From the NCBI RefSeq assembly GCF_009931435.1, contig NZ_CP043414.1: a stretch of DNA of 64,000 nucleotides. One strand, 5' to 3'. The notes beneath the pieces are model-generated. The model was not told the DNA's origin and searched no databases. It saw nothing but the letters and a program-made list of their open reading frames with translations. The DNA comes from Escherichia coli (lineage in GTDB: Bacteria > Pseudomonadota > Gammaproteobacteria > Enterobacterales > Enterobacteriaceae). The position numbers were made by a program, and so were the translations under genes. Positions 63,361-63,666 of the stretch are shown piece by piece. Numbering within the stretch: position 1 is the first letter of the stretch; each line of letters begins with the position of its first letter.

Positions 63361-63666
63361 ATGAAACACAAGCTTTCTGCAATCCTTATGGCCTTCATGT
63401 TGACGACGCCAGCTGCGTTTGCTGCACCAGAAGTAGCAAACGGGACCGAGGCAACGACGGGTACTACTGGCACCACAACGACCACTACTGGTGCCACTAC
63501 GACTGCTGCTACCACCGGTGGCGTAGCTGCTGGCGCTGTCGGCACGGCGACGGTTGTCGGTGTGGCAACGGCTGTTGGTGTGGCGACTTTGGCAGTAGTT
63601 GCAGCAAATGACAATGGCGATGGCGGTTCTCATAACACCTCGACCACCACGTCCACTACGCGCTAA
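63361..63666 (+). CDS. gfcA: Threonine-rich inner-membrane/secreted protein GfcA (YmcD)
   Basis: ORF 63343..63666; start at ATG 63361 (MKHKLSAILMAFMLTTPAAFA) with AGGA RBS gives 101 aa; extreme T/G/A low-complexity region. Confidence 0.85.
   Translation: MKHKLSAILMAFMLTTPAAFAAPEVANGTEATTGTTGTTTTTTGATTTAATTGGVAAGAVGTATVVGVATAVGVATLAVVAANDNGDGGSHNTSTTTSTTR

Follow-up and report, generated by a model that had tools for sequence, protein, structure and literature searches.

Does the threonine-rich, low-complexity reading frame at the head of the group 4 capsule operon of E. coli change its length by slippage of its DNA, or does it encode a protein whose sequence and length are kept by selection? 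The question is raised by the reading frame at positions 63361–63666 of the window, which here means the whole stretch of 64,000 nucleotides of E. coli DNA that was analysed. According to the original prediction, the repetitive ACN/GGN codons of this frame are prone to slippage, which may make the length of the tract variable between strains. The gene gfcA has been described before, including its odd composition (101 aa, about 30% Thr), and a renewed description adds little. The protein itself is called 'entirely uncharacterized' in a paper from 2024 (PMC11494523). In EPEC E2348/69, an in-frame deletion of gfcA abolishes the capsule and a plasmid carrying gfcA alone restores it (PMC3853201), so that the gfcA product must act in trans.

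The gfcA gene and the layout of its product

Judged by protein identity and gene order, the frame at 63361–63666 is gfcA, once named ymcD, which heads the group 4 capsule operon of E. coli. It lies on the plus strand, as do all features described below unless stated otherwise, and consists of 101 codons and a stop, from an ATG at 63361 to a TAA that ends at 63666. The window DNA is a 100% match to E. coli strain 2020CK-00188. The same 306-nt CDS is annotated by RefSeq in this source genome (100% identical to the window), where it is labelled 'hypothetical protein'. Alignment of the window protein with the RefSeq 'threonine-rich inner membrane protein GfcA' (WP_001295358.1) showed 96% identity over 101 versus 101 aa without gaps, the four substitutions being A25V, T26A, T50A and S85N. 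In the source genome the locus reads torS, yccM, gnsA, ymcE, ymcF, cspG, cspH, gfcA, gfcB, gfcC, gfcD, gfcE, etp, etk, appA, and gfcA is found directly 5′ of gfcB with the same synteny in other E. coli. Of gfcB, annotated by RefSeq as a lipoprotein gene with a GTG start, the window holds the 5′ part (63773–64000), cut by the window end. The frame that starts at 63773 matches PF11102, described as 'Group 4 capsule polysaccharide lipoprotein gfcB, YjbF', with E = 2.4e-14. The protein identity, the order from cspH to appA and the position of gfcB thus bear out the gene name and the place at the head of the gfc operon that had been assigned from the sequence.

An in-frame ATG is also present at 63343. 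The ATG at 63361 was preferred as the start because a Shine-Dalgarno motif, AGGA, can be read from the sequence at 63351–63354, 6 nt 5′ of it. In the strain of the window gfcE carries an annotated frameshift, and the operon may therefore be inactive there. Genome comparison showed that the gfcA promoter region of this strain lacks IS1, unlike that of K-12. Two antisense reading frames on the minus strand, 63174–63614 and 63319–63633, overlap gfcA and are best read as by-products of its stop-poor codon composition.

The predicted protein falls into five parts. Residues 1–21 (63361–63423) form a predicted Sec signal peptide, MKHKLSAILMAFMLTTPAAFA. Its n-region is basic, its core is hydrophobic and its A-x-A site is followed by AP, and cleavage would take place after AFA. 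This signal peptide is invariant in Escherichia, and an equivalent N-terminus is found in every family member. It is followed by the N-terminal Thr-rich low-complexity tract (residues 22–54, 63424–63522), in which 16 of 33 residues are Thr. This is the tract on which the original prediction was based, and the string quoted there, TTGTTGTTTTTTGATTTAATTGG, corresponds to residues 32–54. A hydrophobic Gly/Ala/Val segment (residues 55–82, 63523–63606) contains the imperfect hexapeptide repeats AVGTAT, VVGVAT and AVGVAT, and its 18-nt repeat array was located by Tandem Repeats Finder at 63535–63584. Next comes the polar motif NDNGDGGSHN (residues 83–92, 63607–63636), whose G-D-G core is nearly invariant in the family alignment, and the protein ends in the Thr-rich tail TSTTTSTTR (residues 93–101, 63637–63663).

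The composition is as extreme as had been claimed, and the coordinates given for it were exact. The 80 residues that follow the predicted signal peptide include 26 T, 16 A, 13 G and 10 V, which is 81% T/G/A/V, and Thr makes up 28 of the 101 residues of the whole protein. When the six frames of the whole window are compared over their 223 stop-free stretches of 80 aa or more, the gfcA frame has the highest T/G/A/V content in 80-aa windows (0.82). The second (0.69) is taken to be the antisense frame of the gfcA DNA, and the third reaches 0.54.

Searches with the protein and its DNA returned little. No Pfam or NCBIfam family matched GfcA significantly, a weak 'WGxxGxxG' match reaching 16.8 bits against a cut-off of 35, and a PDB profile search gave nothing below E = 0.3. 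Rfam found no RNA family in the gfcA frame; a match to isrG was rejected as chance (17 bits against a threshold of 100 bits). The Kyte-Doolittle maximum of the hydrophobic segment over 19 residues is 2.16, which supports a membrane segment as far as hydropathy can. AlphaFold2, run with a 16-sequence alignment, placed a helix of low confidence at residues 58–84, which is unreliable because the mean pLDDT was 44.6. The hydrophobic segment is followed by acidic residues (NDNGDGG) and no basic cluster, and a simple N-out/C-in single-span topology therefore fits poorly.

Repeat content and length across E. coli genomes

Contingency loci are phase-variable genes, known from Haemophilus and Neisseria, that carry tandem tri- to heptanucleotide repeats. 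The likeness of gfcA to such loci, a run of similar codons in a surface-related gene, is superficial. Perfect short-unit tandem repeats several copies long are absent from gfcA. Its longest exact direct repeat is 8 nt, its longest run of a single codon is 2, and the Thr codons are mixed (ACG 11, ACC 8, ACT 8, ACA 1). Tandem Repeats Finder reported imperfect arrays, one with a 21-nt unit in 2.0 copies (85% match) and one with an 18-nt unit in 2.8 copies (78% match). For comparison, the protein was re-encoded 2,000 times at random with synonymous codons, either by approximate genome codon usage or by permutation of the gene's own codons. The longest repeat in these sequences was 9.3–9.6 nt (±1.4–1.6 nt) and the longest single-codon run 2.4–2.6. 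The gfcA DNA is ordinary for its protein sequence, with repeats neither enriched nor detectably purged. We also considered that selection might have scrambled the codons to keep the DNA non-repetitive and rejected this, the observed repeat measures lying in the middle of the simulated distributions. The original prediction was accurate in that the codons are of the ACN, GGN, GCN and GTN type. The DNA that they form is not repetitive, and there is no microsatellite-like substrate for slippage.

To compare the length of gfcA between strains, the gene, extended by 30 nt at either end to 366 nt, was searched against 5,426 complete E. coli genomes, using the window allele with megablast and with sensitive blastn and the common K-12-type allele with megablast. 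From each search, 60 records were sampled at even steps down the ranking. A few genomes recur between the samples, which together cover ~165 distinct genomes. A gfcA match was found in about 3,660 complete genomes and was full-length in about 3,590. In the three evenly spaced samples, 171 of the 173 full-length matches (57 rows in each sample) were exactly 366 of 366 nt. The remaining three rows per sample were an allele longer by 18 nt (in the two megablast searches only), an end-shortened match and partial matches. The Thr tract (residues 22–54) had the same length in every sampled E. coli genome. The K-12-type query gave 2,563 records with at least 99% identity. In its ranking, an indel of at least 12 nt would place a record among the last ~120 full-length ones; two of these were sampled, so that up to ~3% of genomes could carry an unsampled indel. 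Comparison of tract length across E. coli genomes had been suggested together with the original prediction, with an invariant length as the outcome that would speak against variation between strains, and an invariant length is what the sampled genomes gave.

The 18-nt allele, seen in strain F1005, is a perfect duplication of GGTGTGGCAACGGCTGTT and adds one GVATAV hexapeptide to the hydrophobic segment. It leaves the Thr tract untouched and is the sole in-frame length variant found in the sampled genomes. Used as a query, it retrieved exactly four genomes (~0.1%), the fifth-ranked record being of standard length. By its sequence this duplication is a genuine slippage-type event, but a rare one and elsewhere than proposed. 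An apparent length difference of 23 nt in one further record (H37) proved to lie in the upstream intergenic region and not in gfcA.

As far as genome comparison can tell, the main structural variation of gfcA in E. coli is loss of the gene. Sensitive blastn found no gfcA match in 1,768 of the 5,426 genomes, and 68 genomes gave partial matches only. The cases of loss include an IS1 insertion where the 3′ end of gfcA and the 5′ end of gfcB are gone, a deletion of cspH and the gfcA 5′ end, and a deletion of gfcA, gfcB and most of gfcC. At the protein level, an exact look-up of the 101-aa form and of the 107-aa form from the upstream ATG, for three alleles, found none of them in a collection of 15 billion proteins. 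A word-indexed protein search with GfcA gave E. albertii GfcA and an intermediate protein (P0031); most of its other hits were gfcA translations with a frameshift or read-through, found on single contigs (P0008–P0011, P0024–P0026 and P0028). The latter may be either sequencing errors or real mutants.

Alleles of gfcA differ by substitution. The window allele is rare, with identity of at least 99% in 7 of about 3,600 genomes by megablast, and differs from the common allele at 17 of 306 nt. Compared with K-12-type strains, the cspH-gfcA intergenic region mismatches at 11% of positions and gfcA at 5.6%, and cspG, cspH, the gfcA-gfcB spacer, gfcB and gfcC at about 1%. On these mismatch rates, the window allele is part of a locally diverged block, and the variation of gfcA between strains exceeds that of its neighbours by substitution and not by length. 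The K-12-type allele is found with 100% identity over 366 nt in unrelated O serogroups (O111:H8, O78:H51, and K-12 and B derivatives), a distribution by which gfcA tracks lineage and not serotype. In S. sonnei, the coding regions of the g4c operon are at least 99% identical and the O antigen is quite different. Both observations argue against serotype specificity of gfcA in Escherichia and Shigella.

Selection on the protein family and the hairpin behind the gene

Direct protein searches perform poorly for GfcA, and the neighbouring gene was used instead. An alignment of GfcB and YjbF led to 21 loci from other species, and in all 21 a small ORF lies immediately 5′ of the gfcB/yjbF homologue. 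These ORFs share one design, consisting of a signal peptide, a low-complexity region, a Gly/Ala/Val stretch, a G-D-G-type motif and a Thr-rich C-terminus, into which the window gfcA fits. Searched against 1.84 billion proteins at E ≤ 1e-3, a profile of GfcA/YjbE-type proteins found 37 cluster representatives. All of them have this layout, and most have a hydrophobic segment of membrane-spanning grade. In the enterobacterial YjbE group, the hydropathy maximum over 19 residues is 1.1–1.4, compared with 2.16 for GfcA. Since these proteins lack a membrane-grade segment, membrane anchoring cannot be universal in the family. Together with the acidic flank of GfcA, this counts against a simple single-span inner-membrane topology.

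YjbE (PF11106) of E. coli is encoded by the first gene of yjbEFGH, an exopolysaccharide operon paralogous to the gfc operon. It occupies the same position as GfcA, before the YjbF/GfcB lipoprotein, a GfcC-family protein and the two-barrel protein YjbH/GfcD. Its layout is also that of GfcA, with a signal peptide, a Ser/Thr/Ala/Gly-rich region, an AVGVA-type stretch, a G-G-D-G motif and a poly-Thr tail, and a hairpin lies 3′ of the gene. YjbE differs from GfcA in its length of 80 aa, in an N-terminal part that is rich in Ser instead of Thr, and in its lower hydropathy (1.24 versus 2.16). Sequence similarity between the two was not detected: BLASTP gave nothing, and GfcA had no PF11106 match at E ≤ 10. 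With a gathering threshold of 27.9 bits for PF11106, K-12 YjbE scores 113.6 and the intermediate P0031 falls just under it with 24.0, while GfcA is not a member. The proposed link between GfcA and YjbE is thus based on synteny, shared architecture and this intermediate.

Which parts of the protein are constrained can be read from the family comparison. GfcA-type proteins share a 30-residue core, GGVAAGAVGTATVVGVATAVGVATLAVVAA, that is constant in length, whereas the N-terminal tract varies. GfcA is equally long (101 aa) in E. coli and Escherichia sp. MOD1-EC7003, whereas the E. albertii protein has 96 aa and that of Enterobacter sp. CC120223-11 has 85 aa; the N-terminal tract has 33 residues in E. 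coli and 28 in E. albertii (5 missing) and is shorter still in the Enterobacter protein. Compared with E. albertii, the tract shows 9 substitutions and 5 gaps in 33 positions, against 2 of 28 residues changed in the hydrophobic segment, 1 of 10 in the polar motif and 1 of 9 in the tail. By this comparison the N-terminal Thr tract, which varies between species, is the least constrained segment of GfcA. In the family alignment, G86 and D87 are present in at least 90% of the sequences, T95 and T97 are invariant and T93 is nearly so. YjbE-type proteins have 80 aa in 13 of 14 sequences and 81 aa in the other. Their Thr7 run has exactly seven residues in 13 taxa while its codons turn over synonymously, a pattern that we read as direct evidence that a homopolymeric Thr run is selected for its exact length. 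In the gfcA frame, comparison with the K-12 type, from which the window allele differs at 13 synonymous and 4 non-synonymous sites, gives a dN/dS of 0.11; the values for E. albertii and MOD1-EC7003 are 0.12 and 0.26–0.31. These values indicate that gfcA encodes a protein under purifying selection.

The spacer between gfcA and gfcB contains a hairpin, CCCGGUUGCGAUAUUCGUACCGGG (63704–63727), that is a candidate attenuator or 3′ stabiliser. It starts 38 nt after the gfcA stop, is conserved within Escherichia and has a folding energy of −13.1 kcal/mol, compared with −6.9 kcal/mol (±2.1 kcal/mol) for shuffled spacers. A simple terminator scan did not call it because no U-run follows directly. When the equivalent spacers of 23 loci were scanned for their best hairpin, 22 gave a stable one (−11 to −20 kcal/mol), and in the 23rd, from Mixta, folding of the whole spacer gives a hairpin followed by a U-run. 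The hairpins are of three unrelated sequence types at the same position: CCCGG...CCGGG after GfcA-type genes, AUAACCACAC-UUCG-GUGUGGUUAU after YjbE-type genes, and canonical terminators, AAAAGGCCGCC-AGCA-GGCGGCUUUUUU, in Arsukibacterium and its relatives. Partial termination at the hairpin or stabilisation of the 3′ end would probably yield more gfcA than gfcBCD message. In EPEC, gfcA has been reported to be by far the most expressed among the measured surface-structure genes.

A possible role of GfcA in capsule assembly

It seems likely that gfcA encodes a small, Sec-exported envelope protein with a five-part layout that includes a conserved N-D-x-G-D-G motif, which may serve as an accessory or acceptor in capsule assembly, and that purifying selection on the protein, its length included, maintains the low-complexity sequence, which does not represent a slippage-driven contingency tract. 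We hold this explanation, taken as a whole, to be the best one. GfcA would be exported by the Sec pathway and its signal peptide cleaved, which would leave a mature protein of 80 residues. The hydrophobic segment might hold the mature protein in the membrane or in a hydrophobic site of the outer-membrane module formed by GfcB, GfcC and GfcD. The Thr-rich parts, of which the N-terminal tract is presumably disordered, would be placed in the periplasm as an accessory, adaptor or acceptor that GfcB, GfcC and GfcD need for assembly of the O-antigen capsule. The hairpin would let the cell make gfcA message in excess over gfcBCD, which suits a component that is used stoichiometrically and not catalytically.

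The original prediction implies a different reading, in which the ACN/GGN codons form a simple, slippage-prone repeat whose length differs between strains and serves contingency or antigenic variation. This reading can point to one true slippage-type event, the perfect 18-nt duplication in 4 genomes, and to an N-terminal tract whose length differs between species, with 33 residues in E. coli, as against 28 in E. albertii and fewer still in Enterobacter. In addition, the gfcA-like genes of Pectobacterium and Dickeya are reported to be highly variable (bioRxiv 10.1101/391854), and when the window is compared with the K-12 type, the divergence of gfcA and its promoter region exceeds that of the genes on either side 5 to 10 times. 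Yet with perfect repeats of at most 8 nt and codon runs of at most 2, a Thr tract of constant length in all sampled E. coli genomes, a sole duplication that lies outside this tract in ~0.1% of genomes, dN/dS well below 1 and an exact Thr7 length in the YjbE of 13 taxa, it is very improbable. Still less credible is the possibility that gfcA is a leader acting in cis, whose Thr-codon-rich frame and hairpin attenuate gfcBCDE as in the thr operon, the peptide itself having no function. The 28 Thr codons at the operon head and the conserved hairpin before the next gene are in line with it. It is contradicted by the published complementation, where gfcA supplied in trans from a plasmid restored the capsule to an in-frame deletion mutant (PMC3853201). 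The purifying selection on the protein sequence and the conservation of the signal peptide and the hydrophobic segment in distant species also disagree with a functionless peptide, and the hairpin begins 38 nt past the stop, with no alternative pairing that overlaps the frame. Both the contingency-tract and the leader readings are effectively excluded.

A third alternative deserves more weight, although we consider it unlikely. Here GfcA would be a carrier, with its periplasmic Thr residues O-glycosylated with O-antigen, and GfcB, which is LolA-like, and GfcC would pass it to the two-barrel protein GfcD for export, the hydrophobic segment then anchoring it at the surface. The idea of GfcA as an O-glycosylated carrier was put forward as a speculation by Larson et al. 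(PMC8592465), and modification of GfcA still has this status. The amyloid-subunit transporter FapF was the fold-recognition match for the N-terminal barrel of GfcD/YjbH (PMC9603273), and a lateral-gate model has been proposed by which GfcD would export anchored polysaccharide (PMC11494523). Of the low-complexity elements of the family, the Thr-rich tail is conserved best, the hairpin 3′ of the small gene would suit a product that outnumbers the machinery, and an EPEC waaL mutant is heterogeneously encapsulated. Against this stand the operon, in which no dedicated protein O-oligosaccharyltransferase is annotated, and the N-terminal tract, whose length and composition differ greatly between species. 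Moreover, one GfcA allele occurs in O111:H8, O78:H51, K-12 and B strains, and S. sonnei has its g4c operon with a different O antigen, so that any acceptor role must be independent of the glycan. Somewhat more doubtful is the fully spelled-out form of this idea, in which GfcA/YjbE-type proteins are the polypeptide cargo or anchor of GfcBCD/YjbFGH. They would be made in excess by means of the conserved attenuator hairpin. LolA-like GfcB and GfcC would carry them through the periplasm, they would pass the outer membrane by way of GfcD's FapF-like barrel, and their Thr-rich ends would carry or hold the O-antigen polymer at the surface.

The preferred reading, a small envelope protein of selected length, can also be set beside known systems. 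The substrates of the PEP-CTERM/exosortase system are Ser/Thr-rich low-complexity proteins encoded at exopolysaccharide loci. Like GfcA, they are small, have a signal peptide, a Ser/Thr-rich composition and a hydrophobic segment, and are tied to loci for exopolysaccharide export. The resemblance is an analogy only. GfcA has no P-E-P motif and no basic cluster but instead an acidic motif and a tail, 19 residues in all, and no exosortase is encoded in the operon. From contingency loci, gfcA is set apart by the absence of perfect tandem repeats and, in the sampled E. coli genomes, of length polymorphism between strains. The gfcA/yjbE-like 'orphan' genes of Pectobacterium and Dickeya (PCBA_RS09180) are small, lie 5′ of gfcBCD, encode a signal peptide and predicted membrane segments and were reported to lack any detectable domain. 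The study that described them stressed their variability and proposed a serotype-specific role (bioRxiv 10.1101/391854), whereas in E. coli the allele is identical across unrelated O serogroups.

Our data settle a negative point: the gfcA tract is not hypermutable, and in the sampled genomes its length is fixed across E. coli whatever the O serogroup. It is unsuitable as a marker for strain typing or phase variation. According to the family comparison, the constrained parts are the hydrophobic segment, the G-D-G motif and the C-terminal Thr run, the latter with exact length in YjbE. The hairpin found behind the small gene at every locus provides handles for experiments on the remaining uncharacterised component of the group 4 capsule machinery.

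Local divergence and loss of gfcA in E. coli

When the window strain was compared with strains of the K-12 type, the cspH-gfcA intergenic sequence, which forms the gfc promoter region (window 62920-63360), showed about 11% mismatch, and gfcA itself (63361-63666) showed 5.6%. In the same comparison, the flanking genes cspG, cspH, gfcB and gfcC differed by about 1%. The promoter region and gfcA form one locally diverged block between these strains, and the IS1 element of K-12 sits in the same region. The block may have arisen by recombination import or by fast evolution.

A search of 5,426 complete E. 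coli genomes with the gfcA ORF and its 30-nt flanks (366 nt) gave no match in 1,768 of them and partial matches in 68. The strains DETEC-P169, 81EVA and ET846 have lost or truncated gfcA, each in a different way. In one case an IS1 insertion is accompanied by a deletion next to it, in another cspH is missing together with the 5′ end of gfcA, and in a third the deleted stretch runs from gfcA through most of gfcC. In the same genome searches, five gfcA matches were located on plasmid records. Two matching places were observed in about 55 genomes, which may be IS-split genes, duplications or assembly artefacts. The operon also carries gfcE, whose product is a Wza-like export channel. Because gfcE is annotated as frameshifted in the window's source strain (13803-14943 of the source-genome locus L004, outside the window), the capsule system may be inactive there, although the promoter is free of IS1.

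Reading frames and neighbouring features

A collection of 15 billion proteins lacks the canonical 101-aa GfcA, whichever of the two start codons is assumed. It does contain several frameshifted versions of 109 aa, each on one to a few contigs, which change frame at differing points of the tract. These might be sequencing errors or real mutants. On the minus strand, two long ORFs overlap gfcA, one of 146 aa (63174-63614) and one of 104 aa (63319-63633). We read both as by-products of the stop-poor ACN/GCN/GGN/GTN codon composition of gfcA; the pattern of synonymous versus non-synonymous changes supports the plus-strand frame. Further upstream, a strong match to the cspA thermoregulator (Rfam RF01766, 156.9 bits, minus strand, 62155-62577) spans cspG and its 5′ leader, as expected for a cold-shock gene.

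Length and composition of the small proteins

YjbE-type sequences (L010-L022 and the yjbE of L005, 907-1149) are 80 aa long in 13 of the 14 cases examined and 81 aa in the remaining one. All of them carry a C-terminal run of exactly seven threonines, whose codons vary across taxa. Judged from these sequences, the homopolymer run is under an unusually strict length constraint. The distant family members of Arsukibacterium (L023 1973-2353; L025 1920-2309; L026 1985-2362) are longer, with 125-129 aa. In these proteins the hydrophobic segment is followed by 8-12 consecutive prolines, a cysteine pair and the C-terminus TVTVTGTGTGT...FTYAP, whose alternating residues suggest beta strands.

A hairpin downstream of the small gene

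A hairpin lies 3′ of gfcA in the gfcA-gfcB spacer (window 63704-63727), and another follows yjbE (about 1214-1240 of L005). In a best-hairpin scan of the window, L005 and the corresponding spacers of 21 loci from other species, the gfcA/yjbE-type gene was followed by a stable hairpin in 22 of 23 loci. For the remaining locus, that of Mixta, a hairpin was found when the whole spacer was folded. The hairpins fall into three sequence types that are unrelated to one another, and those of Arsukibacterium and its relatives are canonical terminators. This arrangement suggests that the hairpin acts by attenuation or by 3′-end stabilisation and in this way sets how much of the small protein is made relative to the GfcBCD machinery.
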